This document shows, piece by piece, positions 7,751-56,850 of a stretch of DNA of 64,000 nucleotides. The DNA comes from Scenedesmus sp. PABB004 (lineage: Eukaryota), in the NCBI GenBank assembly GCA_014905635.1, contig JABVCE010000002.1, forward strand, positions 496,001 to 560,000. Reading direction: 5' to 3'. A model generated the notes under the pieces. That model did no database searches. It worked only from the letters and a program-made list of their open reading frames with translations, and was not told the DNA's origin. The translations under genes and the position numbers were made by a program. Numbering within the stretch: the stretch's first letter is position 1; the number at the start of each line of letters is the position of its first letter.

Positions 7751-9308
7751 ATGCTCAAGCGCCTGGACTGGCTCCATGTGCACGGCGACGCGGGTGGCAA
7801 CTCAAGCAGCAGCGACAGCGACTCGGGTGCGGGCCAGGAGCAGCGGCGGGGTCGCTGGCCGCCGCCGCCGCCGGCCGCTGCCGCCGCCCACGCACGCGCC
7901 GGCCGCGCCGCGCCGCGCCGCGGCGCAGACTCCTCACCCAGCAGCAGCGGGTTGGACGGCGGGGCGCCACGGGGCGGTGCCCGCGCCGGCGGCCGCGGGC
8001 GCGCCGCCGCGCGGCAGCCCGGCCGCGTGGCGGCCGCCAAGCGCGCGCCGGACAGCCCCGCCGCGGCGCGCAAGAAGTCGCGCCGCGCCGCCGCGGCAGC
8101 GCCGGACAGCGACGAGGGCGACGAGGCGAGCAGCGGCAGCGATGCAGCCGGCAAGGCCAGCGACGGCGGCGAGCCCGCCGCGGCGGCGCCGCCGCGGCGC
8201 GGCAGGGCGGCGGCGCCCCCGCAGCGCCACCCGCAGCTGCCGGACAGCAGCGACGACGACGACGACGGCGGCAGCGGCGACGACACCGACCGCAGCAGCG
8301 ACGACGAGCGGCTGCGGCACGCCTGGCTGTTTCGTGGCGGCGGCAGCGGGGGCGGCGGCGGCAGCGACGACGGCGACGACGGCGACGGCGGCAGCGGCAG
8401 CGATGGCAGTGGCAGCGGCGAGCCGGAGCTGCGTGTGGACGAGGTCGAGGCCAACTGGGCGGACGCGCCGCTGAGCGAGACCGTGCGGGTGAGGGGCGGA
8501 GGCCGCGTGTTTGAGCTCGCCCCCGCCCAGCGTGCGCTGGCTGCCCACGCGTTGCCCCGCGCCGCCGCCGCTGCAGGGCGCCGCGCTGCGCTGCGCTCCC
8601 TGCGGCGCGCTGCTGCTCAACGCGCAGAGCTATCGCACGCACCTGCAGAGCAAGGTGCGGCGCGCCCTGGCCCGCGCCGCCCCGCCCCGCCCCGCGCCCA
8701 GCCTGCGCTGCGAGCCGCGCGCCGACGCCCCCCCCCCCCCTTGGGGCGCCGCCGGCCGCCGCGCCCGCCCGAGCGCAGAAGCACGCCGCGGCGCTCAAGG
8801 CCTGGGACGCCGAGGACGACGGCCGCATCATCGTGTTTGCCGCCGACGCGCCCAGCAAAAAGGCGCGCGCGCAGCCGCCGCGGTGCTGCTGCGCGGCGGC
8901 TGCCGTGCGCCGGCGCGCGTGCGGCCGCTCACCTGCTCCTCCCCCGGCGCGTGCGCTCGCCCGCAGGCGCGCGCGGACGAGGGCGAGACCCACGCGGAGC
9001 GCCTGGCGCGCCTCAAGCGCGAGGCCGAGTCTGGGGCCGCGCGCGGCGGCAAGGCGGGCAAGCGGCAGCGCGCGCGGCGCGGCGAGGCGGGCGAGGGCGA
9101 GGGCGAGGGCGCCGCGCCGCGCAAGAAAGGCAAGCCCGGCAAGCGCGAGCGCGCCGAGGCCAAGGCCAAGGCCGCAGCCGGCGGCGGCGGCGCCAAGCCC
9201 AGGCCCAAGCCGGCGGCGGGCGCCAAGGCGGCGGGCGCGAAGCAGCTGGGTGGGTCGGCGCAGCGGCGCAAGGCCCAGCGTGAGGCGGCGCGCGCCGCTG
9301 CGGCCTGA
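7751..9308 (+). CDS. Acidic/Lys-rich protein with a single C2H2/U1-matrin-like zinc finger
   Basis: Spliced CAPCGALLLNAQSYRTHLQSK|KH finger, Asp/Ser-rich N-terminus, ETHAERLARL and KPGKRER basic tail. 3 introns, one GC-AG (8863-8966). Confidence 0.65.
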
Positions 9309-9583
9309 GCCCCGAACCCTCCGCCGGCGCCTGCGCTCGTAACGGCGCGCGGCGAGCTCCACCGCCCAGAGCTCCTGGTCAGCTCCTCGCACCGCCGCCA
9401 GCCACGGGCGCCGGGCCGCCGCGCCAACCCGCCGCAGCCGCCGCCGCCGTCGAGCGCGCGCGCTCGCCGCCGCGCCGCCCGCGCGCCGGCCAGCCGGCGC
9501 GGGACGCTCTCCGGGACCCCCCGGTGCCGCTCGCCGTCTCTGCAGGCACTGCGAGCGCCCAGCAGCAGCGCCAAGGCGCCGAA

Positions 9584-11826: not shown

Positions 11827-12181
11827 AGGAGCGGTCGTCGTCGCGGTTGTGACGCTCCGGCCGCCGACTGTGCCAGACTGGCACTGCCAGTACTCCCTGC
11901 GGCCCGTCGTGGGCGCCAGCGCCGCCCCTCCGCCCCGTCCGACGCGGCAGGAGCCCCGCGGAAGCAGCCCACCCCCGCCGCGTGCCCACCGCAGCAGAGC
12001 CGCCGCTGCCGCGCGCCGCCCCGCCGCCGCGGCGCGGCCAAGCCGCCGCGTGCGCCGCGGCATGGAGCCAGGGAGTGCCGCGTTGCCCGCGGCACACGGC
12101 GACGCGAGCGCGCGGTAGGCGCCCGAGCAGCAGCGCGCCGGCGCCGCAGCCCCTGGGTCCGGCGCCGCGGCGCAGCTCCAG

Positions 12182-12715
12182 ATGGCGGCCGCCATGTGGA
12201 GAGCGCTGGTGGACAGCCGCCTGATCGTCCTGCTCGCAGCGCTATGGGTCTACGCCTTCGGTGCGGCCCGGCGCCGATGCTGAAAACGCTCGCAGCCTGG
12301 CGCCGCCCGGTGCCGGCGGCGTGGGGCCCCACGCCACCCCGCGCACACCGCCGCCACCGCCTCGCAGGCTATGCGGTGCTGGTGCCGCAGCTGCCGACGC
12401 TGCTGACCAACTTTTTTGCTGCGCGGCGCGCGGGCGAGGCCGTCGACTGCTTCTCCGCGGGCGCGCCGCCGCCGCCGGCGTGCGCCGCGGCGCACTCGGA
12501 CGTCGTGCAGTGGACGAGCTGGACGAGCCTCGTGAGCAACACGCTGCTGGGGTGCCTCTGCGCGCCGCTCGTGGGCGACCTGAGCGACAATTGGGGACGC
12601 AAGCCCTTCATCGTGGCCGGCCTCCTCCTCGGCGGCCTCCCCATCGCCGTCGTCGCCGCGCACCTCGCGGGCGCGGTCTCCCTGCTCTGGCGCGCGCCGC
12701 CGCCGCGCCGCCGCC

Positions 12716-12755
<40 letters not shown>

Positions 12756-14766
12756 TGCGCCACCGCGGCCGCCGGCGCCGCGCCACACCGCCGCCGCCGC
12801 CGCCGCCGCTGCGCCGCCCACGTGCGCGCACCGGCCGGCGCAGGTACTACCCTGCCAATGCAGCGTCGAGCTGCATCAGCGTCATCGTGCTCGTGCTCTC
12901 AGCCACCGCCGACGTGCTGCCGCCGGCGCACCGCACCGCCGGCTTCGGGCTCATCGTCGCCGGTGAGCGCCGCGCCGCGCCGCGCCCGCCCCGCCCCGCG
13001 CGCCCGCGCGCCGCCCCGGGTGCCGCCGCGGGGCGCGCCCATCTGACCCCTTCCTGCCCGCCGCCCCCTCGCGGCGCACGCAGCGTACTCGGCAGGGTTC
13101 ATCTTCGGTCCCCTCCTCGGCAGCGGCCTTGACCCACAGCGCGCGGCCCTCGTCGCGGGCGGCGGCGTCCTGGCCGCGATCGGCCTCGTGCTGGCGGCGG
13201 TGCCCGAGTCGTGGCCGCCGCGTGCGGCCGGCTGCGCCGCTGCGGGTGCGCGCGGCGCGCTGCGGCTGCGCCGCCCGCTGCTCCCGGCGGGTGGCCCCGA
13301 GCCCGGCCGCCGCCGCCGCCGCAGGGGGCCTGCGCCGCACGCGGCGCGCCCGCTCAACGCGCTGGCCAGCCTCGGCCGCAGCTGGCGGCTCATCACGAGC
13401 AGCGGGCTGTTCAAGCGCCTCGCGCTGTGCATGGCCATCGTGGGCGTGGTGTCCGAGGTGCGCGCCGGCGCGCCTGCCGCGCCTGCCGCCGCGCACCTTC
13501 TCCCCCGCGCCCCTGCCCGCCCACACGGAGAACCCCCCGCGCCCCTGCCCGCCCACGCACACACGACCGCCGCCCGCGCGCCCCGCCCTGCCCTGCCTGT
13601 GCCGCCCTGCCGCCCCGCCAGGGCATCCAAGACATGCTGCTGCAATACCTCCAGCTCACAGTCGGCTTCAACACACGCGACCAGGGGCGCCTCTTCGTGC
13701 TGCTCGGCGCCGCAAACCTCGTCGTGCAGGCGCGCACGCCAGCGCCGCGCATCGCGCGCCAGCGCCGCCAGCGCCGCGCAGCGCGGCGGGCCGCCCGGGC
13801 GCGCGGCCGCCGGCCGGGAGCGCGCCGAGGCCGCGCCGGGGCCGCGCCGCGCAGGCGGCGCTGCTGCCGTGGCTGGTGGCGGCGCTGGGCGAGCGCCGCG
13901 TGCTGGTGCTGGGGCTGGCGTTCTCGGCAGCTGAGCAGGCGGTGCTCGCGGTCGTGACGAGCAAGGCGACCGCTTTTGGCGCCGTCGCGCTCGGCTCGCT
14001 CGCCGGCGTGGCCTTCCCTGCAATCAGCAGCATCAAGTCGACGCACAGCCGCGCGGACCAGCAGGGCCTGGTGCAGGTGCGCGCCCGGGGAGCGCGCGCG
14101 GGGGCCGCTGCGGCGCCGGGGGTCCGGCGGCGCGGGCGCAGGCGCTGCGTGTGTGCGTGCGGCCGGGCGGGCGGGCGGGCGCCCACGCTCCGCCGCGCCC
14201 GCCGCCGGCAGGGCGCGCTCGCTGGCATCCGCGCGCTGGCCACGGGGCTGGGGCCAATCGCGTTTGCCCAGCTCTTCTCCGCGTGCACACGCCCCGACGC
14301 GGGTGCGCGCGCGCAGCGGCGGCCGCTCGCGGGCACCCGCCCCCGCCGTCGCCGCGGCCGCCGCTCCCCCCCCCCCCCCTTCCCCCCCTCACACACACAC
14401 ACACACCTCCCCGCTCCGTCGCGCCCGGCCGCGCCGCGTCCAGCGCTGGGCTACCGCCCGGGGCTGGTGTTCTGGACCACCTGCGCGCTCACCGTGGCGG
14501 CGCTGGGCGTGGCCGCCTCCATCCCAGCCTCGCTCGTCACGCGGCCCGGCGCTGGCGAGGCGGCCTCCTCCGGGGGCGAGGGCGAGGCGCTGCTGGCGTC
14601 GGGCGAGGGGCGCGGCGCCGCCGGCTGGCTGGCTGATGCGCCGGACGGCAGGGGCGCCGACGCGGCGCCGCGCGGCAAGGCGCCGCGCAGCAAAAACGTC
14701 ACACCGCCGCCGGCCGGCGACGTTGCGGCGCGCGACGCCGAGTGCACGACCGTGGTCGTGTCTTGA
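12182..14766 (+). CDS. Major facilitator superfamily transporter (HIAT1/MFSD14, TetA-like)
   Basis: Motif A GDLSDNWGRKP, many TM segments, QQGLVQGALAGIRALATGLGP; 8 exons, GC donors at 12690 and 13730. Confidence 0.88.
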
Positions 14767-15739: not shown

Positions 15740-15770
<31 letters not shown>

Positions 15771-17214: not shown

Positions 17215-17350
17215 CGGGCGCCGTCTGCACGGTGCGGGCGCGGCGCGGAACGCGTATTTGAATGCTTGCCTGGTTGCACAGCTCACGAGCAAGGACCGCC
17301 GTCGTCCGGATCCGGCCGCTCGTGCGCGTCGCCGCCGCCCCTGCGGAGCG

Positions 17351-19457: not shown

Positions 19458-19489
<32 letters not shown>

Positions 19490-29487: not shown

Positions 29488-29528
<41 letters not shown>

Positions 29529-30281: not shown

Positions 30282-31836
30282 ATGCAGCTACCCCGCTGCC
30301 GCTCCCAGCCGCTGCGAGCACCTCCAGCCCCCTCGCAGCCGCGCCCGGCAGCGGCGCCGCGGGGGCCGCGCTGCGCGGCGGCGGCAGCAGAGGCGCGCTC
30401 GGCAGCAGCGATGCGGCGAGTGGCGGGCGTGCAGGAGCTCATAGAGGACGGCAGCTTCACGCACGTGCTGCTGGACCAGTTCGGCGTTCTCCATGATGGC
30501 CGCCAGCCCTACCCGCACGCGGCGGCGGCGGTGGAAGCGCTCGCGGCGGCGGGCAAGCGTGTGTTTGTCCTGAGCAACAGCAGTCGGCGCAGCACCGGCA
30601 CGCTGGCCAAGCTCGAGCGAATGGGCTTTTCCGTGGATTGGTTCGCCGGCGCCATCACGAGCGGCGATGTGGCGCACAGCCTCCTCGAGGCGCGGCGGCG
30701 AACAGCGGCGCCGGCGCGGCGCGCGCGGCCAGCGGCGGCGTGCACCAGCCACGCGCAGCGCCGGCGCGCGGCCCCACAGCCGCGCCGCCCGCCGCCAGGC
30801 CAACAAGCAGTCAGGCTTCAGCGCGCTCGGGCGGCGCTGCCTCCACCTCACCTGGTCGAGCCGCGGGGCCATCAGCCTCGACGGCCTCGGACTGGAGGTG
30901 CGCTGCGACGGCCGGGGACGGCGCGTGCCTGGCAGCTGGCCGGCAGCTGCCGCGCCGCCAGGCAGCTGGCGGGCGCGGACCGCCCGCCCGCCCCGCGCGC
31001 CCCAGGTGGTGACGGAGCCGGAGCACGCTGATTTCATCCTGGCGCACGGCACCGAGGCGCTGGGCCAACCGGGCGGCGGCGCCGCAGACGCGGCGCTGCC
31101 GGAGCTGCTGGCGCTGCTGGAGCGCTGCGCCGCGTGCGCGGCGGCGCGGGGGCGAGCGATGCCGATGGTGGTCGCGAACCCAGACCTGGTGCGCCCCCAG
31201 CCACCCCTGCTTCCCGCCGCCTCGCTCGCGGGCAGGCTGCGCCACGGCGGCCGGCCGCCACCCCCCGGCTCGCGCGCTAACTGCGCGCCGGCTGCCGCCC
31301 CGCGGCGGCCGCCAGGTCACCGTCGATGGCCCTGGCCGGCCGCTGATCACCATGCCCGGCACGCTCGCGCGGCACTACGCCGCGGCGGGGGGCGTCGTGG
31401 AGCTCATGGGCAAGCCCGACCCCCGCATCTACGCCGCCGCCCAGCAGCTCGCCGCCGGGGCCGGCACCGACGCCGCCGCCGTGGCGCCGCCAATCGGGGC
31501 TGGCTGGCTCGCTATCGGCGACTCGCTGGAGCACGACATTGCCGGGTGCGGCGCGCGCTGCCCGCCGCCGCCGTCGCCGCCGCGCGCTGCCCGCCGCGCG
31601 CCGCGGCCGTCTGACGTCCGCGCTGCCCGCCGCTGCCCGCGCCCGCGCGCAGCGCGTCGCGCGCGGGCGTGCCCAGCCTGCTGGTCGTGGGCGGCATCCA
31701 CGCGGAGGACGCGGCCCTGGCGGGCGGGCCCGAGCGCGGCGGCGCGGCGGCGGCCTGGGACGACGCCGCGCTGCGGCGGCTCTGCGAGGCACATGGCGCC
31801 ACGCCGACGTACGTCACGGCATTCCTGCAGCGCTGA
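30282..31836 (+). CDS. HAD-superfamily class IIA hydrolase with transit peptide
   Basis: LLDQFGVLHDG, LSNSSRR, ITSGD, VANPDL, MGKPDP, IGDSLEHDIAG; 5 exons, GC donor at 30690. Confidence 0.92.
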
Positions 31837-32294: not shown

Positions 32295-34633
32295 TCAGTC
32301 TATGTGCCACTTGAGGGTGCGCGCCGCGCCGCCCTCGGCCTGCGCGTGCGCCGACTTGCCCGTCACGCGCACGGCCATCTCCAGCTCCAGCAGCCGGTGG
32401 TTGACCGCCTGCCGGCTGAGCTTGAGGCTGCACGCGAGGCTGTCCCCGGGCGCGCAGTCGAGGGAGGGGCTCATCATAAACACCTGCTGCCCCCAGTGCG
32501 TCGCGCCTGCGGCGCACGGACGACGCGGCGGCGGCACGTGGTGAGCAAACGGCACGCGGCGCGCGGCCCCGCGGGCCAGTGCGCAGGCCGCGCCGCGGCC
32601 GCGCGGCCGCACCGGTGGCGTCGGGCCCCGTGGGCAGCTTGACCTCGTCGTCTGCGGGCGCCTCGGGGCTGCCCGCAAACGTGACGTCAAACCAGCCGCA
32701 GAACGCGTCGACCGGCCCGCCGTCCACGATCGGCAGCGTCACCTCGGCCCGCAGGTCGGCCTGCGCGCGGCGCCGCGCGGGCGCTCGCTGCACGCCGCGC
32801 TGGCTGGCTGGCCCCGCCGCCGCCGCGCTGGCTGGCCCTGCGCTGGCGCCGCACCTTGAGCTCGTCGACGGTGACCTTGAGCAGGTCGTACGCCTTGAAT
32901 GGCACGCCCGGCCCCAGCAGCTGGCTGGGGTGCACGTTGCCCCAGGCGCTGGTGTTGAGGTAATACTCCGCCTGCTCGCCACGGAACGCCTCGCTCAGGC
33001 AGTCAAGGTCGACCTGGTGCGTGGGTGTGAGTGTGTGTGTGTGTGGGGGGGGGGAGGCGCGGTGAGCGGGCGGCGGGCGGGGCGGGGGAGCGAGAGACGG
33101 GAGGGGGAGGGGCGTGCACGGGCGAGGGAGGGCGAGGGCGAGGGAGGGGGAGGGAGAGGGGGTGTGCCAGCGGTGAATGACTCAGCGGCGCATGGGGGCA
33201 ACGTGCGTTGCGCGCCCGCCAAGTAAGTGAACCCTGGCGCGTGACCGCGTGCTCTGCGGTGCCTTGTCCGCTGCCAGCACCCACGGGGGAGGGGCTGGAG
33301 CAAGGAAGCTCCGCGCCCCGCGGGGCCGCCGCCCGGCCGCCCGCCCGCCCGCCGCCCCGGCCCCGCCGCCGGTGGCCCGCTGCGCCTGCCGCATCGTCCC
33401 CGCCCGCCGCATCACCCTCCCTGGCCCCCCACTCAACCCCGTGTCCCGCCTCACATTGTAAAAGGCGTTCATCTCCTTGAGGAACTCAGACCACCCGTAC
33501 ATGCTGTTCTGCGCACGTCAACAGGCAACCAGCAACAGACACCGAACAGGCCGCGCGTGAGCCGTGCGCGGCGGCGGCGGCGGCGGCCTGCGCGCGCGGG
33601 CCGCGGCCGCCGCGCAGCAACGCAGCGCGGCGCTGCGCTGCGCGCCTGGAAGTCGTTGACGCGCTGCGCCGCGGCGTTGGTGCGCATGGGCGCGATGAAC
33701 ATGCGCGCGTGGCTGGGGTAGAGCGCGCCGCCGGGCTTGAGCCACTTGTCGCGCGCGACCAGCACTGACCGCCGCGCCGCGCCGCGCCGTGCCGGCGGCG
33801 CCGGTGAGAGCCCCGCGCGCGCCGCCGCGCCGCCGCCGCGCCGCCGCCGGCCCCCGCCGCTCCCCTCTGGCGCGTGCGCCGTGCGCTGTGCGCTGTGCGC
33901 TGTGCGCTGCGCGGCGGCGGCGCTGCGCACCGCTGTCGAGCATGCTCTCGCGCAGCAAGAAGTAGCCCATCCACTCGCTGATGATGACGTCGACCTTCTC
34001 CGGCAGGTCGATCGTCTCGATCGTGCCCTGGATCACCTCCACGACGTGGCCCAGCTTGTTGGCCTCCACCAGCGTGCGCGCGTGCTTGGCCATCGACGTC
34101 GCCTCGACCGCGTACACCTTGCGCGCGCCGGCCATGGCGGCAAAGATCGCGAGGATGCCCGACCCCGTGCCGACGTCCAGCACGACGCGGTCCGCGAAGA
34201 GGCGCTTGTTCTGAATGACCGCGTTGTAGTAGGCGCCCGTGCGCTTGTGGTCCTCGAGCATGTCCTTCTGCGCGGCGCGCGGCGCGGGTGCGGATCAGCG
34301 CCGCCCCGCCGCCGCCGCGCCGCGGGGCGCGCCGCCACCCGCGGCGTCCGTAGACGCGCAGTAGGTCGCGGAGACCCCGCCCAGCGCCGCGCCCCGCCGC
34401 CCGCGGCCGCAGGCGCCGGCAGCGGGGCAGCGGCCGCCGACGCCGCCGTCGGCCGGCGCCGCCGCCGCGCCGCGCCGCGCGCGCGCGCGCGGGCGCGCGG
34501 GCGCGTTGGATGTGTCGATCTGCGCCCGCACCTGGTGATAGAGGAAGGCGTAGGTGCAGAAGTAGTTGGCAAAGTCCTTGCCATCTGGCGCCCGGCCGTC
34601 CAGCTTGGACAGCGCCCCCCGGCCCTCCGCCAT
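32295..34633 (-). CDS. PRMT10: Protein arginine N-methyltransferase, plant PRMT10 type
   Basis: YFCTYAFLYHQKDML, VLDVGTGSGILA, IISEWMGYFLLRESM, THWGQQ; 7 exons. Confidence 0.93.
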
Positions 34634-36401: not shown

Positions 36402-37441
36402 TCACTGCGCGGCCGCCGCCTCCTCCTCCGCCTCCTCCTTTGGCTGCCGCTTGGCCTCCTGCGCGGCCATGTAGGCGTCAATCTCATCCGGCGACAGACC
36501 CTGCGCGCCGGCGGCAGACCGCAGCGGCGCGTCGGGTGGGCGCGCAGCAGCGCGTCGGGTTGGCGGGCAGCGGTGCGCGGCAGACGCCAACGCCTGCCCG
36601 CCCGCGCCGCCTCCCCGCCGCGCCTCGAGCGGGTCGCTGGGGTCGATGCCGTGCTTCTCCATGAACGCCACGATGCCGGCGGGGGTCAGCCCCTCCAGCG
36701 GGTCGCTCTCGCCTGCGCGGCAGCACCCGCGGCGGCGGCGGCGGCGGCGGCGCGTTCGGCCGCGGGTGGCGGCGGTCGGCCGCGCGCGCGGCGGCGGCGG
36801 CTGCGCCGGCGCCGGCGGCGGCCTGTGCCGCACCGTCGATGAAGCTCGCCCCGGTCAGCACCGCGCGCAGGTGCTCCTTGCGCCGCGCCTCGAGCTCGGC
36901 CGCGCGCGTCTTGGCCGCCTCGAGCTGCTCGGGCGTGGGGTCGGGGTCCTTGAGGTGCCGGTACAGCAGCAGCGCCACGCCGCCCACGCCCGCGCCCCAG
37001 TACCACTTCTCCCACGTGCGCAGCGGCTTGGCGCCGCCCGCGACCTCGCTCGACATCTCGATCAGGCTGCCCGGCCCGCCTGCGGCCCCGCCGCGAGGGA
37101 CTGAGCGGCTGCGCGGCGCCGGACGCCGGGCGGCGGCGGCGGCGAGGCGGCGGCGCGGCGGCGCGGCGCGCACCCGACGTCGACGCGCCCTCTGCCGCGG
37201 CGCCGGCGGCCGCGGCGCCGCCGGCGCCACCGGCAGCGCCGCCGGCGCCGCCGACGTTGACGCGGCGCAGCGGCGCGCCCGCGCCGCGCGCGCCTGGGGC
37301 GGCGTGGCTGCTGAACAGCCGCGCCGCCGCGCCGCCGCCGCTCTCAGCTGCTGCGACGGCTGCTGCTGCGCCCAGGCGGGCGGCCCCCGCGCCGACGGCG
37401 GCGCCGCAGGCGCAGCAGCGCGCCGCCGCTGCTGCTGCCAT
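36402..37441 (-). CDS. Unknown single-TM protein with probable mitochondrial presequence
   Basis: ARLFSS presequence-like end, TM WEKWYWGAGVGGVALLLY, duplicated SDPLEGL(T/S)P motif; 4 exons. Confidence 0.6.
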
Positions 37442-44170: not shown

Positions 44171-45982
44171 ATGGGCTCCGACTGGGGCGGCCGCGGCGCG
44201 CCCGCCGGCGCCGCGTCCAGCAGCAGGCTCAAGAGCGTGTTGCCGTTGCTGGTGGTCGCCTTTCTCATAGGATGGTGCAGCAGCTGGACGCGCAACGGCA
44301 GCCGCGTGACGCTGCAGGCGGCGCTGTCGGCGACGAGCAGCAGCAGCGGCGCCGCTCCCACGGCCCCCAGCGCGAGGCTGGCCCAGTGGGTGCTCGGGGA
44401 GAAGTGCCAGCAGGATGAGATCAAGGATCAGGTCGAGCTGATGAGGGCCGCGGTCGCGAACGGGAAGAGCAGGCGCGCCGCGGAAAGTCCGGCGCTGCTG
44501 CCGCCGCGCGCGCCGGCTCGCGCTGGGACCGCTGGGAGCGCTGGGAGCGCTGCCGGGAGGCGGCGGTGTCTGTGCCTTCGCAGTGGGGGCGCGCCGCAGG
44601 CGGGAGCGCGGGCGGGTGGCGCGGCGGCCGCGCGGCAGCAGCAGCGACGCCGACGCCGCCGCGCGCCGCGTCGCCCCGCAGCTGCCCCCCGTTCCACTAC
44701 CTGCTGGACCTGGAGCTGTTCCTGGGGCTGCACCCCGTGGTGTTCGACGTCGGTGCGCGCGCTGCGTGCCGCCCGCGCCGCGCCGGGGCCGCGGCCGCGC
44801 GCCGCCGCCGACACCCGCCGCCGCGCCGCCCACGCTCGGTGCAGGCTGCAACAAGGGCTACGACACGGCGATGCTGTTTGAGGCGTTCACGTCGGGCGAG
44901 GCGCTCACGCGGCGCGCGCTGGGCGCGTTCTACGAGGCCTCGCCCGAGCTGAGCAAGGTCATGGCGGCCATGAACGGCGGCACCTGCGGCGTGTGCAACG
45001 ACTGCCGCGAGGCCTTTGACGCGCCGCGCCGTCGCGCCGCGCCGCCGGGGCGGCAGCTCACCGTGCACTGCTTCGAGCCGTCGGCGACCAACTTTGGCGC
45101 GCTGCGCCAGATGCACGCGCGCTTCGTCGGCGCCTCCAACGTGACCGCGCGCGGCAACGCACTGCTCCTGCACAACGCGGCGCTCTCCAACACGACCGGC
45201 ACCGTCAGCATGCCGAGCAACTGCGGCGAGCTGTGCACGGCGAGCCCCGCGCGCGCGCCGCCTGCGCTGCGCCGCGCCGCGCCGCGCCGCGCGCCTGCCG
45301 GCCGCCGCCCACGCGCCGCGCGCGCGCCGCCGCAGGTCCAGCCGGGCGCCAAGGCCGCGCCCGGGAGCACGCTGGTGCCGCTGAGCACGGTCGACGCGAC
45401 CATGGAGGCGCTGGGGCTGGACGAGCTGTTTATGCTCAAGATTGACACAGGCGAGAGACAGAGACAGAGGGTGGCCGGGCGCGGCGGGCGCGGGGGGCGG
45501 CGCGGCGGCGCGGTGCCCCCCCCCCCCGCCGCCGCCGCGCGGCTGCGCAGCGCCCGCGGCCGCGCGGCCACGGGCGGTGCGCCGCGGCGCCCGCCCGCCC
45601 GCCCGCTGGCCCACCGCTGGCCCGCCGCCGCCGCCGCCGCCGCCGCCGTGCGCCGGCGCGCGGCGCAGAGGGCTACGACCCGCTCGTGCTGCAGGGCGCG
45701 GCGGGCGCGCTGGCGCGGCACGCGGTGAGCCTGGTGCTGTTTGAGTACAACACGGGCGGCGTGTGGGGCGCGGGGTTCAGCCTGCGCGGCGTGACGGAGC
45801 GGCTCGAGGGCCTGGGGTACGTGTGCTACCTCGAGGGGTCGCTGCTCACGCGCCTCACGGGCTGCTGGAGCGACGACATGGAGTTCAAGGCCTGGTCAAA
45901 CGTCATCTGCGTCGCCGCGTCGCGCCCCGTGGCCGCGGCGCTGCGCGCGTACAGCCTCGCGCCGTTGCGCGGCCGCTACTGA
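44171..45982 (+). CDS. FkbM-family SAM methyltransferase, type II membrane
   Basis: N-terminal TM VLPLLVVAFLIGW; VFDVGCNKG, VHCFEP, NAALSN, LKIDT|EGYD, VLFEY. Confidence 0.88.
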
Positions 45983-46744
45983 GCGCCCGCGAGCGCCGCC
46001 CGCGCGCGGGGCGGCGCCGGGCGGCGCGCGGGCCCGCGGCGCCGCCGGGATCGCGGCGGCCGCGCGTCGGGCTGCGTGGTGCGGGCGGGCGGTGTTCGGA
46101 CGTCCGACAGCGAGGGGTGTGGCGGGCGTTCACAGTGCGTGGGCGCCTCGGCCGCCTCCGTTGCTGTGGCGGCGCGCCCGTCACAGCCACCTCCCCTTTT
46201 TGCTGCGCCGAGGGTTTGGCTGGCTTGGCCGGGAGCACCTGGGCACTTGTGCTGTTGCACAGGCTAGGCGTTGCATGCTGGCGCGAGACACAGGGCAAGG
46301 GAGGGGGCGCAGCGCCTGGCCGATCGATCGAGCGCAGGGCCGCCTGCGCGGCCGCATTGCGTGGTGCACGAGTGACGCCGCCGGCGCGCGGCTGAGGCGC
46401 TTGTGTCGCTGTTGTTGCTCACACTGAACTCAACCTTGCGCGGCGAAGTAATGAGTTGTTGCGGTCCGAAGCGCCGCAGCGTGCGCCGCCGCCGTGGCGT
46501 CGGCGTGGGCGCCAGCGCGGCGCCCAGTGCGTCGAGGGAGGCACGGTACGGCTCTCAGACGCGCGAGCAGGGCGAACTAGGCAGCCCCGGTGCAATGGCG
46601 AGCCGGGCCAAGCCGCGGCGCTGCGCCCCGCGCCCGCAACGGCGCGCCGCCGAGCCGCCCGCCGTCACGCTGATCTCTCGCACGGAACTGGCGCCCCCTG
46701 CGCCCCCTGGCAGCCCCGCCGCCGCCCCGGAGCCGCCGCTGCGC

Positions 46745-48326: not shown

Positions 48327-48357
48327 GACCTGGTGGGAGCGCCTGTGGGTGCCATAG
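46809..48357 (+). CDS. Glycosyltransferase family 25, copy A (type II membrane)
   Basis: VISLTRAKERR, FDAVDG, LSH, IEDDA, WDMLYL, TLGYAIT; N-terminal TM; 6 exons. Confidence 0.88.
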
Positions 48358-48556
48358 GGCCAGCCTGTTGCGGCGCCGCCGCCGCTCAGTGGTGGGGGCT
48401 GCGCGCGCGCCGCGCGGTTCGAGCCTCGCGCGAGCGCGTGGCGGCTGGCGTGCAAAGAGGGAGCGCATCGCATTACCGTGCACGCGCGACACACCAAACG
48501 CCCGACCGCCTGCCTGGCACAGGCAGCCATCGACCCAGCGCCAGCTCCGCGCCCGC

Positions 48557-49985
48557 TCAGCCCCGCGGCGGCGGCGGCGGCGGCAGGCCGCGGTCAATGT
48601 TGTCCAGCACCCAGGCCGGCGTCTCGCGGCTGGACAGCCAGAGCGCCGCGCCATTCGACTTGTGCTTGAAGTCCGGCGCCTTGGGGTTGCGCTTCTGCGG
48701 GGCGCGCGCCGCGTGAGCGCGGCGGCTGCGCCGGCTGCGCCGGCCGCGGCGGCCGCGCCGCCGCGGGCGCGCCGCCGTCCCCGCCCCGCCGCCGGCGCGC
48801 CGCGCGTGCCCCGCGGCGCTCACGTTGGCGCGGTTGTCCCACCACTCGCGGTAGCTGGTGAACACGCTCACCCACTGCGCCTCGCCCTCGCTGCTGGGCT
48901 CCGCCGGCAGGAAGTCGGCGCCCGGGGCGGGCCCGCCGGCGCGGCCGCGCCCAGCGAGCCGCCCGCCGGCGGCGCGTAGGGCCGGGCGCCCGGGAGCAGC
49001 TGCAGGCTGCCGAACACCCACGCCGGCGTGACGTTGCTGTCGACCCACAGCGCGGCGCCGTCGGCCTTGCGCTTGAAGTCGGGCTGGCGCCCCGTTTTCT
49101 GCGGCGCCGCGCGGCCGCGGTCGCGGCCGGCCGGTCGGCCCCCCGCCGCGCGCCCGTCCCCCGCCGCCCCCTCCCCGCGCGCCGCCCCGCGCACCGTGTC
49201 GCGGTTGTCGTACCAGCCGCCCGGGTCAGCATAAAGGCTCATCCACAGCGCCTCCTTGTCGCTGCCCGGCACCTCTGGCATGCCCGGCGCGGCCACGGGC
49301 GCCGGGCCGGGCGGCGCGGCCGCCGCGCTCGCGGCGCGCTGCTGCTCGAGCTGCCCGGGCGTCGCCGCCGGCAGCGGGCCCTCGCCGCCGACGACGAGGC
49401 TCTCGGGGCTGGGCGTGGCGACCATGCCGATGTCGTTGGCCGCGACCTGCCGCGCCGCGCGGCGACAGGGCGGCGTCGCCCGGGCGCGCCCAGCCGCTCG
49501 CCCCGCGCGCGCGAGCGCAGCAGCGACCCCGCCGCGGCCGCGGGGCCCGCTGCCGCCGGCGCGCACCCGCACGCTCGCGCCGCCGAGCTCGTCAAACACG
49601 ACCGTCAGGCGGCCCTGCACCTGCACCTGCGCGTCCTCACGCAGCAGCTCCGCGGCGCGCTCGACCCACTCGGGGTTTGAAAACTCGACGCGGAAGCTGC
49701 GGGCCGGCGCGCGCGCCGCGCCGCGCGCCGCGCGTCAGCCCCTCGGCCCGCCGGCACTGGGCCCGCTGCGCCGCGCCGCGCCGCGCCGCGCCGCGCCGCG
49801 CCGCCGCTCACGAGTCAAACGCCGGGCCCTCCGCGCCGGCGTCGCGCGGCACGCGCAGCATGAAGGCGTAGCTGCCGCCCGGGCCGCGCGAGGGGCTGGC
49901 GAGGCTGCCCGTCAGCGCCACAAAGTTGACGTACTGCGCGGCGCGGCGCGCGGCGTTCAGCGCGCCGCGCGGCCGCCGCGCCGCT

Positions 49986-50020
<35 letters not shown>

Positions 50021-50366
50021 GCCTCGGGGTCAAAGTCGGCCTGAAAGATGGGCTCCGTCGCCGCAGCCTCGTCCTCCTCCTCCGCGACCGCGCGCGTGGC
50101 CAGGCGGCGCTGCGCCAGCGGGCCGGCGGCCGCGGACGGCCGCCACGGCGCCGCCGCGCGGGCCTGCGGGCGGGGGCCGGCGGCGCGCTCGGCGCCCCGC
50201 GCACCCCCAGCGGCCGCGCCGCGCGCCGCGCCCGCCACACCTGCAGGCGCAGGCCGGCCAAGCTGGCGTGCATTCGGCTCGCCAGCGCCGGGCTCGGCGC
50301 GCCGCGCTGCCAGAGCGCCGGCGACGGCGCGCCGGCGCCGCTGCTGCCCAGCGCTCTGATCGCCAT
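48557..50366 (-). CDS. Organellar single-stranded DNA-binding protein (OSB-like: OB fold plus two PDF motifs)
   Basis: NFVALTGSL and VQVQGRL OB-fold strands; WYDNRDT|KTGRQPDFKRKADGAALW and WWDNRAN|KRNPKAPDFKHKSNGAALW. Apparent -1 frameshift near 48925; start uncertain. Confidence 0.82.
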
Positions 50367-50746: not shown

Positions 50747-52095
50747 TCACGCCGGCAGCGAGCCCGTCTCGCGCAGCAGCGCGCTGTGCAGCGGGCAGGG
50801 GTCGGGCTTGCCCGCAGCGGCGGCGGCCTGGCTGAGGGCGTGGAAGTAGCCGTTGCGCCACTTAAACTCCTTGACCGCGGTCGGGAAGTGCGACACGGAG
50901 CGCGCGTACGCGGTGAGCCGCGGGACGACGCCCGGCTCGAGCGTCACGCCCAGGTCCGCCGCGCCCGCGTCGGCGAGCTCCTGGATCAGCGCCGACACCT
51001 CGTCGCCGTGGCGCGCCTCCACCTCGCCCACGGTGGCCTTGTGCTTCGCGCCGACGAGCATGAACGCGCTGCGACCCGCCCCGGCGCGCGGCGCACGGTG
51101 AGCGGGCGCCGGTGGCGGCGCGCGCTGGGGGCGCTGCCGCCGCGGCGGGCGCCGCCACTGCCTCGCGCAGCGCCGGCGGTCACCTGATCCAGACCAGCTT
51201 CTCCAGCATCGCGCGCGTGAAGGCGGGGCGGTCCAGCACCTTGCAGCTCAGCCCGCCGCCGCGCAGGCGCGCCGCGACCGCCTCGGCGTGCACGCCGCAC
51301 GCCGCAGTGAGGCCCTCGGGGTTGACGTCGGTCTTGCCGTCGGTCGGCGCGTCCCCGAGCTTGGCGACCGCAAAGTAGACGAGCACCTGCGTCGCGTCGC
51401 CGAGGCCGCGCGAGTCGAGCCAGGGCTGCAGCATGCCGTTCTGCAGGAACACCAGGTCTGCGGCACGGCGCGGCGCATGGCGTGTAGGAGCGCGCCGCGT
51501 GAGCGCGTGGGCACGCGCCGGCACGCGCCGCCGGGCCGCGCGCGCCCGGCCCCGCGCGCGCGCGCGCGCCTGGCCGGCGCTCCGGGGGCGTGGCGTCCAC
51601 GATGCCGTCCAGCGCGTCGTTGCGCGTCGCGATCAGGATGGGGCCGGGCGGGCCCGCGATCGGCTCGCCGCGCCGCACGATCACCTGGGGTGCGGCGCCG
51701 GGCGGGCTCGCCGGCCGCGCGCGGCCGCGCGCCGCGCTGCGCAGGAGCAGCGCCGGCCAGCAGGAGCAGCGCCGGCCTCACGTCGGAGCCGGGGCCCATC
51801 TCGGCGAGCGCCTGGCCCACGCGCCCGCCGCCAACGATCGTGAACGCCTGCGGCGCGCGGCGGCGCCGCGCCGCCGGCAATTGGCGTCCCGCGCCGCGAG
51901 CACGCCGCCCGGCGGCGGCGCGGCGCCCGCGGGCGCCCCTCGCGCCTGCATCGCGGCGGCCGCGGCGGCGCAGCGCTGCGCCGCGCCGCGGGCGGCGGCG
52001 GACCGCGGCGCCGCGGGCGCTGCGCAGGCGCCGGCGCTGCGCTGGACGGCTGAGGCCACGAACGGCCGGGGCGCGCGGCAGGCGGCGGCGAGCAT
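50747..52095 (-). CDS. Conserved plastid ketopantoate-reductase-like Rossmann protein (green-lineage family)
   Basis: IVGGGRVG, ATRND, LVFLQNG, VYFAVAKLG, MLEKLVWI, HFPTAVKEFKWRNG; 5 exons. Confidence 0.8.
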
Positions 52096-52377: not shown

Positions 52378-52943
52378 ATGCTGCTCGCCCACGGCGGCCG
52401 CCTGCGGGCATGCGGGTGCGGGCGGGGCGCGCCACGCGCTCAAGCCGCTGCCCTGCACGCGCCGAGCAGGGCGCCGCCGCCCGCTGCTGCGCGACGGCGT
52501 GCGGCGCGGCGCCGCTGCCGCCGCGCGGCCGCCGGGCGCTTTGCCGCGCCGAGCGGGCAGCGCCGAGCCCTGGCCGGCTCACACCGCCCCGGCCGTGCCA
52601 CCCGCCGCAGTTCTACGCGGGCGCACGCAGCCCCAGCAGCAGCCCCACCAGCAGCCCCCTGGCCGCCGCAGCTGCTGCTGCTGCGGCGGCGCCGCGCGGC
52701 GCCGCGGGCGCCGGCGGCGGCGGTGCCGGCGAGCAGGGCCGGCGACGCCGGCGAGCGCGTGCGGCGGTCGCGCCGCGAGCGGTCGGGCGGTGAGGCCGAC
52801 GGCGCGGACGACGACCTGCTGCTGGACCCCAGGGAGGCGGCGCGCCTGCGGCGGCTCATCAAGGCAAAGGGCATGCAGGCCGTCGTGGACGCCAGCGGCA
52901 TCGTCAAGGTGCCCACCAGCGACGCCGGCGACGGTGCAGCGGC

Positions 52944-52977
<34 letters not shown>

Positions 52978-55271
52978 AGCGGCAGCGGCAGCGGCAGCGG
53001 CGGCAGCGGCGGCAGGAGCAGCAACGGTGCCGCCGCCGAGCAGAGCGAGCCGGCCGCGGCGCAGCAGCGCGGCGGCCCCCTGGAGCGCGGCGGCGGCGCC
53101 GACGGTCAAGCGGACGGCGGCCGCGGCCGGCTGTTTGCGCGCTCACAGCTGCAGGCGGCGACGCCGGGGTCGGGCGGCGCCGCGCCGGCGCTGCCCATCG
53201 TGCGGCCGGCGGGCGGCGACGCGCGCGGCGGCGAGGACGGCGGGCGCGCGCGCGGCGCGCCGGGCAGCGGCTCGTCGGCCGCGTTTTTCAGCGCCGCGTC
53301 GTGGGCGGAGCTGGGCGCGGCGCCCGAGGTGGTGGAGGCGCTCGCCGCGCTCGGCATCACGCGGCCCTCGCACGTGCAGGCCGAGGCGTTCCGGGCGCTC
53401 GCGCGCAAGGGCGGCGTGCGGCACGTCGCGCTCGCGGACCAGGCGGGCAGCGGCAAGACGCTCGCGTACCTGCTGCCGCTGCTGCAGCAGCTCAAGCAGC
53501 GCGAGGCGGCCGCCGGCGCGCCCGTGACGCAGCCGCACAGCCCCTCCATCGTCGTCATGACCCCGACCGCAGGCGAGGCAGCGCGCGGCGCGCCGCCGCG
53601 GGGGTGACCGCGACCCGGCGCGGCGCGCGCTGCGGCGCCCGCGCGGCGCCGCCGCTCACGCCCGCGCCGCCGCCGCGCCGCAGAGCTGGCGCAGCAGGTG
53701 GGGCGCGTCGTGCGCGCGCTGAGCGGCGCGGGGCTGCGCGTGCGCGGCGCCGTCATGACCGGCGGGCAGAGCGAGGCGGACCGGCGCAACAAGACCTTCC
53801 GCACGCAGGTGCGCCGCCGGGGGCGCCTGCGGCCGTGTGCCGCTGCCGCCGCCGCAGCTGGGCGCGCTGCGCGGGGCGGGCGGCGGCCCAGCCCGAGCGC
53901 GCGGCGCCTGTGCCCGCGCCCCCGCGCGCACACAGTGCGAGCTGCTGGCGGGCGGCGTCGACGTGCTCGTGTCCACGCCGGGGCGGCTCATCGCGCACCT
54001 GGACCGGGGCAGCCTGAGCCTGGAGCACACCGCGGCGCTGGTCATGGACGAAGTCGACGTGCTCGCGGGTGCGCCGCGCGGCGCGGCGGCACACCGCGGC
54101 GCGCTGCCCCGCACGGCCCCGCGCAGGCACGCATGCGTTGACCGCCTGCTCGCTGCTCGCCGCCGCGGCTGTGTGCCCCCGTGCGTGCGCGCGCGCAGGC
54201 GGCGAAGTGAGCTACGCGGAGCACGTCGCGCCGCTGCGCGCGGCGTCGGGCCCGGGCCTGCGCTGCGTGCTCGTGAGCGCGACGCTGCCGCAGCACACGT
54301 TTGACGAGCTGCAGGAGCTCTTCATGGGCCTCGGCGCCGCGTTCGGGCCCGGCCTGCACCGCACCGCGACAGGCGCGCGCGCGCGCGCGGGGCGGCGGAT
54401 CGTGCGCGCGTGTGTTTTGGACGGGGGGGGGGGGGGGGGGGGCAGCGGCAGCGCCGCCGCCTCACGCGCCGCCCGCGCGCGCCCCCGCCTCACGCGCCCG
54501 CCCGCGCGCGCGCCGCCGCCGCGGCCAGGGTGCGTGGAGGAGCTGGTCGACTGCTCCGGCGGCGACGACGTCTCGCTCGAGAGCGGCACGCAGCGCAAGC
54601 TCGACGCGCTGGGCGCGGCGCTCGCGCGCGTGCGGTCGCCGCGCGTGATGGTGTTCTGCAACAAGATCGAGACCTGCCGCGTCGTGGAGAACGCGCTCAA
54701 GCGCCGCGGGCCCGACGAGTGCCAGGCGCGGCGCGGCGCGGCGGCTGCGCGCGGCGCGGGCCCCTGCTGCCGCCGGCGAGCGGGGGCGGGCCCGCGGGCC
54801 CCGCCCGCCTCCTCCGCCGGCGCGGCGCCGACACCGCGCCTCGCGCCCGCGCGCCCCTCGACCGCGTGCCGCGTCCAGGTGCTGGCTTATCACGAGGCCA
54901 TCCGCGACGAGGCGCGGTCCGCGGCGCTCGCGGCGTGGCTGGCGCCGCCGGCGCGCGGCGCGGCGCCGCTCGTGCTTGTGTGCACCGACCGCACGAGCCG
55001 CGGCATCGACAGCATGTGGTGCGAGCACGTGGTGCTGTTTGAGTTCCCGCGCGACCCCAGCGAGTACGTGCGCCGCGTCGGCCGCACCGCGCGCGGCGCG
55101 GGCGGGCGCGGCGTCGTGACCGTGCTCGTGCTGGGCAAGCAGGTCGCGCTCGCAAAGGACATCCTCGCGCGCAACCGCGCGGGCGCGCCCGTGCACCGCG
55201 TGCCGCGGCTCTGGGCCGACGGCGGCGAGCGCGGCGCGGCGCGGACCGGGGCGGCGTCCAACCGAGGCTAG
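52378..55271 (+). CDS. RH50: Plastid DEAD-box RNA helicase, RH50 type
   Basis: [62 protein letters not shown]; 5' exon structure uncertain. Confidence 0.88.
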
Positions 55272-55295
55272 GGCGGGCCGGGCGGTGGACCCCGG

Positions 55296-55300
55296 TGTAA
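55296..55300 (+). promoter_or_regulatory. TGTAA polyadenylation signal of RH50
   Basis: 25 nt after the stop. Confidence 0.55.
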
Positions 55301-55389
55301 CGCGACACCGCGCCGCCGCCCGCGCTTGACATCGGCACGGGCCGGGGGTGCCACGATCGCCAGCAGGCCGCGTCGCCACCCGCCCCTCC

Positions 55390-56850
55390 ATGCTCACCAA
55401 GATGCGGCTGCCAGCGCCGGCGCCGGCGGGCGCGGCGGCGCGGCGGCTCGCCCAGCTTGTTCCGCTGCTGGTCGTAATGAACACGTTGCTTCTTTTCTGC
55501 ATCATCCTCCTTCTGGCGTGGCCAGGCGCCCTCGGCGGCGCGGCAGCAGCAGCGGCGCCCGCGGCCGAATCGGTCGCCGCGATGAAGCAGCAGGCGCGTG
55601 CCTGCTCGCGCGTGTGTGAACGCGATCGTGATCACGAGCCCTGAGGATGCTGGCAGGGCTGCGTGGCCGCCTGCTGCGCGCGCCGCGCCGGGAGGGCCGG
55701 CGGCGCACGGCGCGCCGCGCTGCTGCGCGCCGCGCCGCACCTTGAGCAGCCGTCCTGCCACAGACGCGCCGCGCCGCCGTCGCAGATCGCTTTCTTGCAA
55801 AAGATGCGCATCGACTACGGCAAGCTGCACTGCGACATCAAGGGAATCGGTCCAACGGGTGCGCGGCTCCGCGCCAAGCAGCGCGCCGCCGGGCCCGCAT
55901 GCTGGCGGCGCCCGCCGCGCGCGTCCGCCACTGCCAGCCCAACGCGGCGCCTGGGCTGAGCGGCGCGCGCCGCCGCGCAGGCGGCTTCTGCGTGAACGCG
56001 ACGCACCCCAACGCGGGCGGCAACAACCAGTGGGACGCGCCGCTCTGCGAGGCGCTCGCGACGCAGCTGCTGCGGGGCGCGGCGGTGCTCGACCTCGGCG
56101 CGGGCCTGGGGCACTATGGCAAGTGCCTGGCCGGCGCCAAGGCGGGCATCAAGTGGACCGGCCTCGACGGCTCAGAGGTGGGCGCAGCGCGCGTGCGGCG
56201 CGCGCGCGGAGCGCGCCCGCCGCGCAGCGCCGCGGCTGCTCGGGCGCCGGCCGTCGCTGCCGTGGCGCGCCACTGCAGCCTGCGCCACACCGCGCCCGCG
56301 CGCGTCGCGGCGGCGCGCCAGGCTGGCCGGCCAGCCTGGGCTCCCGGGCCCTCAGCCGCGGCCGCCCGCCAGCCCACCACCCGCCCGCCGCCGCCCGCGA
56401 GGCAGGGCATCGAAGAGGCTACGCATGGCTTCGTGCAGTTTGCCGACCTCACTGTCCCCCTCTTCCTCGGACGCACGTTCGACTGGGTGATGAGCCTGGA
56501 GGTGCGCTGCGCGTGCGCGCGCGAGCGGGGAGGCCCTGCGCCCGCGCCGGTGCTCGAGCGCGCTCGCCCGGCGCTGCCAGGTCGGCGAGCACATCCCGCA
56601 CGAGCTCGAGTCGGTGTTCCTCGACAACATCGCCCGCCACGCGAGCGTCGGCGTGCTGCTGACCTGGGCGGTGCCCGGGCAGGGCGGGCACGCTCACGTG
56701 AACAACCACCCAAACGAGTACGTGGTCGAGCAGATGACGCGGCGCAGCTTTGAACTCGACCCGGCTGCCACGTCCAGGCTGCGCGGCGTCGCGACGCTGG
56801 GGTGGTTCAAGGGAAGCTTCATGGTGTTCCGGCGCGGCGGCGGCGAGTAG
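55390..56850 (+). CDS. Class I SAM-dependent methyltransferase, type II membrane
   Basis: TM LLVVMNTLLLFCIILLLAW; VLDLGAGLGHY, GLDGSE, FDWVMSLE|VGEHIP, WAVPGQGGHAHVN. Confidence 0.88.

Follow-up and report, generated by a model that had tools for sequence, protein, structure and literature searches.

We confirmed that introns starting with GC and ending with AG are a real feature of a nuclear stretch of the green alga Scenedesmus sp. PABB004, where they make up about one in six introns, and that this feature is not unprecedented. Our analysis suggests that they are probably ordinary U2-type spliceosomal introns, which are unusually common (~10-20%) in an alga with a ~78.5% GC genome. The window, i.e. 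the whole stretch of 64,000 nt that was analysed, has 76-82% GC, and the genome is tabulated as ~78.5% GC with a size of 39.8 Mb (table in PMC12571836); Scenedesmus sp. NREL 46B-D3 has about 57% GC. A first-pass annotation of this DNA had named 11 GC donors and given one more coordinate, 55594; GC is indeed found at each of these 12 bases, ten of them on the + strand and two, 33645 and 36623, on the - strand.

The main evidence comes from ortholog profiles, against which we scored 24 introns of the RH50, FkbM, MFS and PRMT genes, allowing any donor dinucleotide with an AG acceptor within +-30 nt. A unique best junction was obtained for 20 of the 24, with GT in 12 cases, GC in eight (donors at 53573, 54373, 44473, 45240, 45451, 12690, 13730 and 33645) and any of the other 14 dinucleotides in none. 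GC would be found at all eight non-GT junctions by chance with a probability of 6e-6, and of 8e-7 given the flanks. The rate of 8/20 is biased and should not be taken as the general GC rate, because the four genes were chosen for holding claimed GC donors. Four introns have no unique best GT or GC placement, namely 54726, the first intron of RH50 (tied), MFS 13211 and PRMT 32854; at the last two, placements with neither GT nor GC score higher, in variable loops. The GC donors are real, as claimed before; the best GT alternatives lose 12-37 bits where they exist. The junctions in use, as judged from protein homology, would start with GC and end with AG as in U2-type GC-AG introns.

Three such introns are present in a deposited gene model. 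A deposited protein that bears the name of Scenedesmus sp. PABB004 matches the exons of RH50 with 100% identity, and three of the six introns in this model (P0001) are GC-AG, each being the sole placement with an AG acceptor. The gene and these introns are as follows, with a slash marking the junction in the protein.

52378..55271, + strand: RH50 DEAD-box helicase gene, 7 exons and 6 introns, 3 of them GC-AG; exact mapping of the deposited protein P0001
53573..53683, + strand: GC-AG intron of RH50, PTA/ELA, 111 nt; in the deposited model P0001
54373..54528, + strand: GC-AG intron of RH50, HRTATG/CVEEL, 156 nt; in the deposited model P0001
54726..54878, + strand: GC-AG intron of RH50, DECQ/VLAY, 153 nt; in the deposited model P0001

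The intron at 53573 is gapless against 15 orthologs and ranks alone at the top of 80 placements, 29 bits ahead of the best GT alternative, in agreement with the earlier view that a conserved motif forces this donor. The one at 54373 is likewise the unique top, of 61 placements, and its best GT alternative is 17 bits lower. The third RH50 donor named before, 54726, is backed by the deposited model and its best GT alternative loses 37 bits, but it is not the best placement when any dinucleotide is allowed: a CG donor 6 nt downstream, in a variable loop, outscores GC by 4.1 bits. A metagenome scan with RH50 returned 80 loci, presumably from marine picoalgae, in which the match is uninterrupted; these loci are intronless and offer no orthologous introns for comparison.

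The GC-AG introns of the other three genes are listed next. No deposited protein for the FkbM or MFS gene was returned by the search.

45240..45335, + strand: GC-AG intron of the FkbM-type methyltransferase gene, GELCT/VQPG, 96 nt
45451..45668, + strand: GC-AG intron of the FkbM gene, KIDT/EGY, 218 nt
44473..44681, + strand: GC-AG intron of the FkbM gene, 209 nt; absent from the first-pass annotation
12690..12843, + strand: GC-AG intron of the MFS transporter gene, SLLW/YYP, 154 nt
13730..13854, + strand: GC-AG intron of the MFS gene, NLVVQ/AALLP, 125 nt
33509..33645, - strand: GC-AG intron of the PRMT gene, VNDFQ/NSMYGW, 137 nt

In the FkbM gene, the intron at 45240 is gapless against the ortholog P0121 and is the unique top of 63 placements (best GT alternative 25 bits lower), that at 45451 is the unique top of 60 (13 bits), and that at 44473 is the unique top of 21 with a margin of only 2.2 bits, at the N-terminal edge of the ortholog. 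The MFS intron at 12690 is gapless against 3 orthologs and is the unique top of 62 placements, and no in-frame GT-AG alternative to it exists within +-45 nt; for 13730, the unique top of 41, the best GT alternative loses 13 bits. The PRMT intron at 33645 ranks first of 51, 12.5 bits above the best GT alternative, and is gapless against the 6 homologs shown; with any dinucleotide allowed it is the unique top of 62 placements by a margin of 1.2 bits. The junctions KIDT/EG, LLW/YYP and DFQ/NSM (the last in a gene previously labelled PRMT10) had been proposed on their motifs, and each is the unique best placement in our test.

Some further introns are putative GC-AG introns, for which we relied mostly on the coding model.

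30690..30798, + strand: putative GC-AG intron of the HAD-IIA hydrolase gene, SLLE/ANK, 109 nt; partial support
36501..36623, - strand: putative GC-AG intron, DPLE/GLSP, 123 nt; coding model and internal repeat
8863..8966, + strand: putative GC-AG intron, 104 nt; coding model only
51458..51569, - strand: putative GC-AG intron, 112 nt; coding model only (12.8 nats), absent from the first-pass annotation
49934..50022, - strand: putative GC-AG intron, 89 nt; coding model only, absent from the first-pass annotation

The LLE/ANK donor at 30690, also put forward earlier, agrees with an alignment to PDB 6nq4_A, which continues beyond the best GT alternative (-21 nt) as far as the end of the exon; exon 2 of the HAD gene has no PDB or NCBIfam match. 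At 36623 the coding model prefers GC to the best GT alternative by 26.7 nats, and splicing there restores a second copy of DPLEGL[T/S]P, the first of which is seen by eye to be contiguous in the preceding exon. At 8863 the best GT alternative is 11.2 nats worse, and the frame would be shifted if the intron were read through. For 49934..50022, no in-frame GT alternative exists within +-60 nt.

To cover the whole window we used a self-training gene finder, which combines 3-periodic codon scores with learned splice matrices. With GT and GC donors allowed it called 24 genes and 116 introns, 23 of them with GC donors; the identical 23 were obtained from a starting GC share of 0.002, 0.01 or 0.1, and 26 out of 111 from 0.3. 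Within 8863-55594 the finder gave 21 GC donors in 90 introns, against about 17 in about 90 in the previous manual count, and 16 of these 21 are consensus-like, reading G/GCG[C/A]G...CAG. It recovered 11 of the 12 coordinates checked and missed 55594. Weak calls, i.e. off-consensus or with a GAG acceptor, account for five of the 23 GC donors. A control run in which a decoy dinucleotide took the place of GC yielded 11-29 'decoy' introns all the same; therefore the two-dinucleotide census shows only that ~15-20% of introns are without a usable GT, and its 23/116, being non-specific by this control, serves as an upper guide only. With all 16 dinucleotides allowed at equal priors, the 111 introns comprise 83 GT, 19 GC, 5 CA, 2 CT, 1 CG and 1 GG, and of the five CA calls at least one represents the verified donor at 53573 in a shifted position. 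The exact GC-AG share is model-dependent, at about 10-20% of the window introns (9 supported and 19-23 called, of 111-116). An intron-versus-intron BLAST showed no introner-like family among the matches listed, which are low-complexity GC-rich matches and a duplicated GT25 gene.

A prediction restricted to GT donors leaves 9 of the 24 gene models in the window unchanged and alters the other 15, and the four genes tested lose 13-110 bits against the ortholog profiles. Such a prediction damages conserved proteins in the window. The warning that standard predictors will mis-model these genes is borne out for GT-only prediction; it is too broad otherwise, as the deposited RH50 model has three GC donors. 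The finder places 24 genes in 64 kb, versus 7,092 genes in the public annotation for 39.8 Mb, as tabulated in PMC12571836, and a re-annotation with GC donors allowed may recover many genes.

The local donor consensus is GTGCG[C/G] and not GTAAGT, and the two donor classes have a common frame, G/G[T/C]G[C/A]G with an AG acceptor. The 83 GT donors carry G at +3 in 99%, C or A at +4 in 75% and 19%, and G at +5 in 96%, and the corresponding values for the 19 GC donors are 100%, 84% and 11%, and 95%. The rest of the GC donor thus follows the major-class consensus of the species, as U2-type introns do, and the earlier description holds: these donors match the GT consensus of the region except for C at +2, and most of them follow AG in the exon. 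The flanking consensus is stronger in GC donors: AG at -2/-1 precedes 15 of 19 GC donors versus 26 of 83 GT donors (p=2e-4), and A at -2 is found in 15 of 19 versus 30 of 83 (p=9e-4), excesses that are partly biased in the full set, where the shared splice matrix pulls GC calls towards consensus flanks. The ortholog-verified subset has A at -2 in 7 of 9 GC and 5 of 12 GT donors, which is not significant (p=0.18). A stronger exonic AG is the usual compensation in GC-AG introns. In the context G-NN-G[C/A]G within the window, NN is CG in 27%, CC in 17.4% and GC in only 17%; since GC comes behind both CG and CC, the GC donors are not explained by composition.

A strong AT-to-GC pressure, either mutation bias or GC-biased gene conversion, probably acts on the donors and would have pushed all their weakly constrained positions to G or C. 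The same pressure would turn T at +2 into C where the other positions of the site, A-2 and G-1 in particular, still pair well enough with a normal U1 5' end. No special spliceosome would be required. The tie to GC bias, already suggested in the first-pass annotation, fits what the literature gives on GC content and splice sites (bioRxiv 10.1101/2024.10.30.620910; PMC7072748). The more frequent A at -2 in front of GC donors points to compensation for the ordinary cost of a +2 mismatch and not to relaxed recognition.

An alternative, proposed in the first-pass annotation, is a changed spliceosome, in which a variant U1 5' end, U6 ACAGAGA box or U1-C would be blind to T or C at +2 and GC donors would be neutral. 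In the register in which a donor pairs with the canonical U1 5' end, GTGCG[C/G] would be a poor match at +4 and +6, so that some co-evolution of U1 or U6 is conceivable, and the GC-AG share of 8-10 times that in Chlamydomonas would also fit. However, GC donors depend more on an exonic AG than GT donors do, which would fit a persisting cost of the +2 mismatch, and GT still makes up ~80% of donors though the dinucleotide GC is ~6 times commoner in the window (13,751 versus 2,330 per strand). Similar shares in pelagophytes are also reported with no such claim in the passages dealing with them (bioRxiv 10.1101/2024.10.30.620910), and we consider a changed spliceosome unlikely. A related idea, which we hold to be equally doubtful, is that U1 and/or U6 have co-evolved with the genome and are adapted to a GTGCGC/GCGCGC donor, making C at +2 nearly neutral. 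If this were true, GC-biased conversion and selection on splicing would hold the GC-AG share in a moving equilibrium, and the species would become a natural system in which the balance of the two can be measured. No snRNA gene was found by Rfam family matches within the 64-kb window.

It is very improbable that the GC donors are an artefact of reconstruction, i.e. chance GC sites in 80% GC DNA with the real donors at nearby GT. The dinucleotide counts above, the tetranucleotide counts (AGGC 426 versus AGGT 144), the two-class finder calling decoys as often as GC and the five weak calls would all be in keeping with it, but profiles free to take any dinucleotide chose GC at every non-GT junction, the best GT alternatives score well below or do not exist, the independent RH50 model agrees at 3 sites, and GT-only models are 13-110 bits worse. 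An assembly or base-calling error turning T into C at +2 can be practically dismissed, since 83-93 GT donors are intact within the same window and an error process would not favour sites after AG.

Our reading of these introns as ordinary U2-type GC-AG introns can be compared with known systems. GC-AG introns account for ~1-2% of introns in eukaryotes generally, and one study reportedly deals with signals that compensate for GC at human 5' splice sites. The introns described here resemble the eukaryotic U2-type GC-AG class in having GC at +1/+2, an AG acceptor, the species' own U2 consensus and stronger flanks, and differ from it in that this consensus is GCGCG/GCGAG in the window, not GCAAG. 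The ESTs of Chlamydomonas reinhardtii, the chlorophycean model species, give 532 GC-AG versus 25,053 GT-AG introns (2.1%; PMC2846911 Table 2). The ~10-20% in the PABB004 window is roughly 5-10 times higher, and the first-pass claim of a share far above that elsewhere therefore stands. Non-GT donors also occur among U12-type (minor) introns; unlike those, none of the 23 GC donors here has ATCC, the core of the donor box (RTATCCTT), in its first 10 bases, and Chlamydomonas is listed with no U12 snRNAs or introns (PMC2846911 Table 2). We found no literature on PABB004 splice sites in a search that did not cover the genome paper (Calixto Mancipe et al. 2022). In plants, genome GC is given as correlating with splice-site GC at r~0.40 (PMC7072748).

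A further likeness is to GC-rich pelagophytes, with GC-AG shares given as ~14-17% in Aureococcus anophagefferens and ~14% in Pelagomonas calceolata, attributed there to GC content, and 0.32% in a lower-GC relative (bioRxiv 10.1101/2024.10.30.620910). As far as that source describes them, they resemble PABB004 in their GC-AG share, in having short introns and in the cause put forward, i.e. high genome GC. The pelagophyte shares come from predicted annotations, whereas the PABB004 junctions rest on homology for a subset. Pelagophytes are stramenopiles and belong to another supergroup; PABB004 is a chlorophycean green alga with a more extreme GC content (78.5%), and adds a green-algal case beside the pelagophytes, whose GC-AG shares reach the teens of percent. 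This speaks for the view that pressure on base composition can erode even the second most conserved base of the splice site if its neighbours compensate.

The main evidence for the GC donors predicted in this window is a homology test of the junctions. All 12 coordinates at which the first-pass annotation had placed GC donors (11 named donors and 55594) do carry GC on the appropriate strand. This is weak evidence alone because GC and AGGC are far commoner than GT and AGGT here (13,751 GC versus 2,330 GT dinucleotides per strand, and 426 AGGC versus 144 AGGT), and hence independent evidence for the junctions is needed. The GC content is 76-82% across all 4-kb bins, and the three-base periodicity is very strong, with one codon position 92-100% GC over exons. 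A table in PMC12571836 gives 39.8 Mb, 78.5% GC and 7,092 genes for the assembly; our gene finder predicts 24 genes in these 64 kb.

Among 139 selected open frames scanned against Pfam, eukaryotic genes turned up on either strand, the families including ARID/SAND, inositol monophosphatase, MFS, HAD, PRMT, lumazine synthase, DnaJ, GT25 (twice) and DEAD-box helicase. The helicase frame matches the deposited protein P0001, 'DEAD-box ATP-dependent RNA helicase 50 [Scenedesmus sp. PABB004]', whose exons all map to the window with 100% identity, which places the window in that genome or one nearly identical to it. A search for near-identical deposited proteins, within its length limits, returned none for the FkbM or the MFS gene; the deposited annotation may be sparse. 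The genes and repeats observed include the following (a bar in a motif marks an exon/intron border):

52378..55271 (+), RH50 helicase gene, encoding P0001
44171-45982 (+), FkbM-type methyltransferase gene
12182-14766 (+), MFS gene
46693-48359 and 59810-61462 (+), GT25-family glycosyltransferase gene in two copies, 96.3% identical over 1,671 nt, their four introns 96-100% identical with GT donors throughout, one odd (GTCCAG)
4116-4530 and 5145-5554, 416-nt direct duplication of 95.4% identity, adjoining the 3' end of the inositol monophosphatase gene
40129-42837 (-), gene without a Pfam match, with a repeated two-exon module in which tgctgc|GTGAG donors (42295, 41811, 41261) alternate with ...cg|GTGCG donors (42037, 41533), phase 0 throughout
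48557-50366 (-), gene whose protein has the module W..DNR..|K..PDFK.K..GAALW...TPAWV twice, the intron position equal in both copies (GT donors 49194, 48823), the module presumably resembling the PDF motif of plant organellar ssDNA-binding proteins
7751-11826 (+), 1,016-aa model, probably a fusion of two genes, with an acidic N-terminal part that by eye includes a zinc-finger-like stretch, C..C...H...H, and another part that is LTV1-like (weak Pfam LTV match, E=6e-4)

For each intron we listed every placement that keeps the frame and introduces no stop, and compared the protein it yields with a homolog-only profile by score, using 15 algal to land-plant orthologs for RH50, one ortholog (P0121) for FkbM, the homologs P0122-P0125 for MFS, and 12 full-length representatives selected from 150 by score and length for PRMT. 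Among GT and GC donors within ±45 nt, each named GC donor in the four genes ranks first. We then repeated this at 24 introns with all 16 dinucleotides permitted as donors, within ±30 nt. The unique top is the model placement in 20 of them, comprising 12 GT donors, 8 GC donors (53573, 54373, 44473, 45240, 45451, 12690, 13730 and 33645) and none with the other 14 dinucleotides. Two of the GC tops win by little, 33645 by 1.2 bits and 44473 by 2.2 bits. The chance of all eight non-GT tops being GC is 6e-6 based on the dinucleotide frequency, and 8e-7 when conditioned on the flanks. The homolog alignments run without gaps across the GC junctions tested in RH50, FkbM, MFS and PRMT. In lumazine synthase, our positive control, NCBIfam positions 2-35, 39-69 and 70-138 of the three exons abut at two GT junctions.

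The best GT alternative within ±45 nt is worse by 29 bits at 53573 and 17 bits at 54373 in RH50, both also in the deposited model, by 25 bits at 45240 and 13 bits at 45451 in FkbM, by 13 bits at 13730 in MFS and by 12.5 bits at 33645 in PRMT, while 12690 in MFS has no GT alternative within ±45 nt. The third RH50 donor, 54726, is in the deposited model with its best GT alternative 37 bits worse, but a CG donor at +6 scores 4.1 bits higher, and the loop in which the site lies varies in length. When P0001 is mapped exactly, its six introns have the donors GT 52416, GC 53573, GT 53809, GT 54069, GC 54373 and GC 54726; several shifted placements of its GC introns yield the same protein, and only the GC-AG placement gives an AG ending. 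One RH50 junction falls within PT-x-ELA, which we take to be DEAD-box motif Ia.

In the wider test the first RH50 intron is tied among many placements, the model placement at PRMT 32854 is beaten by 2.8 bits, and at MFS 13211 the model loses by 26 bits to a TG placement within a loop that is not conserved. For that MFS intron (13211-13324, +) the orthologs favour extending the exon by 30-39 nt past the GT donor 13211 (+26 to +28 bits), for which the donor would have to be TG or GC (13250); the perfect match G|GTGCGCG at 13246 is, by eye, out of frame. The first RH50 intron (52416-52736, +) has 321 nt in our gene-finder model and 195 nt with the deposited acceptor end at 52610, and orthologs cannot choose between the two because the N-terminus is not conserved. 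At HAD 30690 the claimed GC donor is partially supported by 6nq4_A, a HAD hydrolase of solved structure, which aligns to the exon end, seven residues past the best GT alternative, but exon 2 gave no PDB or NCBIfam match. The putative donor at 36623 has a coding-model margin of 26.7 nats, and splicing there recreates, by eye, a DPLEGL[T/S]P motif found contiguous one exon upstream. The putative GC donor 8863 is a call of the coding model only (11.2 nats).

We took the census of introns using our own self-training gene finder, which combines codon log-odds with donor and acceptor matrices that it learns, and searches both strands explicitly for introns. With realistic intron costs it predicts 24 genes and 116 introns, 23 with a GC donor, and a laxer cost gives 33 of 133. 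Starting the GC share at 0.002, 0.01 or 0.1 leads to the identical 23 donors, and at 0.3 to 26 of 111. The model recovers 11 of the 12 claimed positions, the next gene beginning at 55804 in place of a donor at 55594, and five of the six deposited RH50 introns exactly, the first differing in its acceptor. Between 8863 and 55594 it has 90 introns with 21 GC donors; 16 of the 21 read G|GCG[C/A]G...CAG, and five are off-consensus or have a GAG acceptor (15727, 21426, 28904, 34979 and 48975). This closely matches the 17 of about 90 counted by hand. However, when GC was swapped for GG, CG, CC, GA, TG, CA or AC as the second allowed dinucleotide, 11-29 'decoy' introns were still called, and hence the two-class census shows that ~15-20% of the introns are without a usable GT, not that their donor is GC. 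When the finder could use all 16 dinucleotides, with every non-GT donor started at 2%, the GC count was 0 at the first iteration and climbed to 19 of the final 111 donors (GT 83, CA 5, CT 2, CG 1, GG 1), at least one CA call (53579) being the verified 53573 donor shifted by 6 nt; this run is weaker as proof because the training has positive feedback.

The GC share is estimated at 17-20% by the models (19/111 to 23/116, CI 11-28%), with a lower bound of 8% (95% CI 4-14%) from the nine supported sites, i.e. the eight unique tops and 54726, among 116 introns. Nine of 116 is unlikely at the 2.1% of Chlamydomonas (PMC2846911, p=7.5e-4) or at 1% (p=3e-6). The share in the four tested genes is not unbiased since they were chosen for their claimed GC donors, and the overall share rests on one 64-kb window and may not represent the genome. 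A GT-only run still gives 24 genes, with nine models identical to those of the GT+GC run. The ortholog-profile scores fall from 709.6 to 654.6 bits for RH50, 460.8 to 403.6 for FkbM, 673.9 to 563.6 for MFS and 530.1 to 517.1 for PRMT. The warning that predictors would mis-model these genes thus holds for GT-only models, 15 of 24 being altered, but the deposited RH50 handles its GC donors.

The GC and GT donors share one common frame, the GC donors being the local GT consensus with C for T at +2, mostly after AG. The GT donors (n=83) have G at -1 in 86%, G at +3 in 99%, C or A at +4 in 75% or 19% and G at +5 in 96%, and the GC donors (n=19) 100%, 100%, 84% or 11% and 95%, respectively. Composition does not explain the GC donors because in the context G-NN-G[C/A]G CG is the commonest NN in the window (27%) and outnumbers GC (17%). 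None of the 23 GC donors is U12-like. GC introns have a median length of 137 nt and GT introns one of 123 nt, with 13 of 19 and 43 of 83, respectively, in phase 0.

The U1 5' end pairs with donor positions -3 to +6, the +2 U with A and the -2 A and -1 G with U and C, and donors that lack the +2 pair usually make up for it by pairing more strongly at other positions. A at -2 is found in 79% (15/19) of GC versus 36% (30/83) of GT donors (p=9e-4), and AG at -2/-1 in 15 of 19 versus 26 of 83 (p=2e-4); the ortholog-verified subset has the same trend for A at -2, not significant (7/9 versus 5/12, p=0.18). This excess matches the signature of such compensation and argues that C at +2 is still costly, and hence for ordinary rather than relaxed splice-site recognition. 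The weakly constrained donor positions are all G or C (GTGCG[C/G]), which fits strong GC pressure acting on the splice signals; the changes would presumably have run from T to C at +2, their direction and timing being inferred. This reading agrees with the finding that genome GC correlates with splice-site GC across species (PMC7072748).

GC-AG introns have long been known. Our literature search, which covered sources other than supplements and the strain's genome paper, found no description of a high GC-AG share in this or any green alga. For GC-rich pelagophytes, bioRxiv 10.1101/2024.10.30.620910 already reports 14-17% GC-AG, explained there by GC pressure too.
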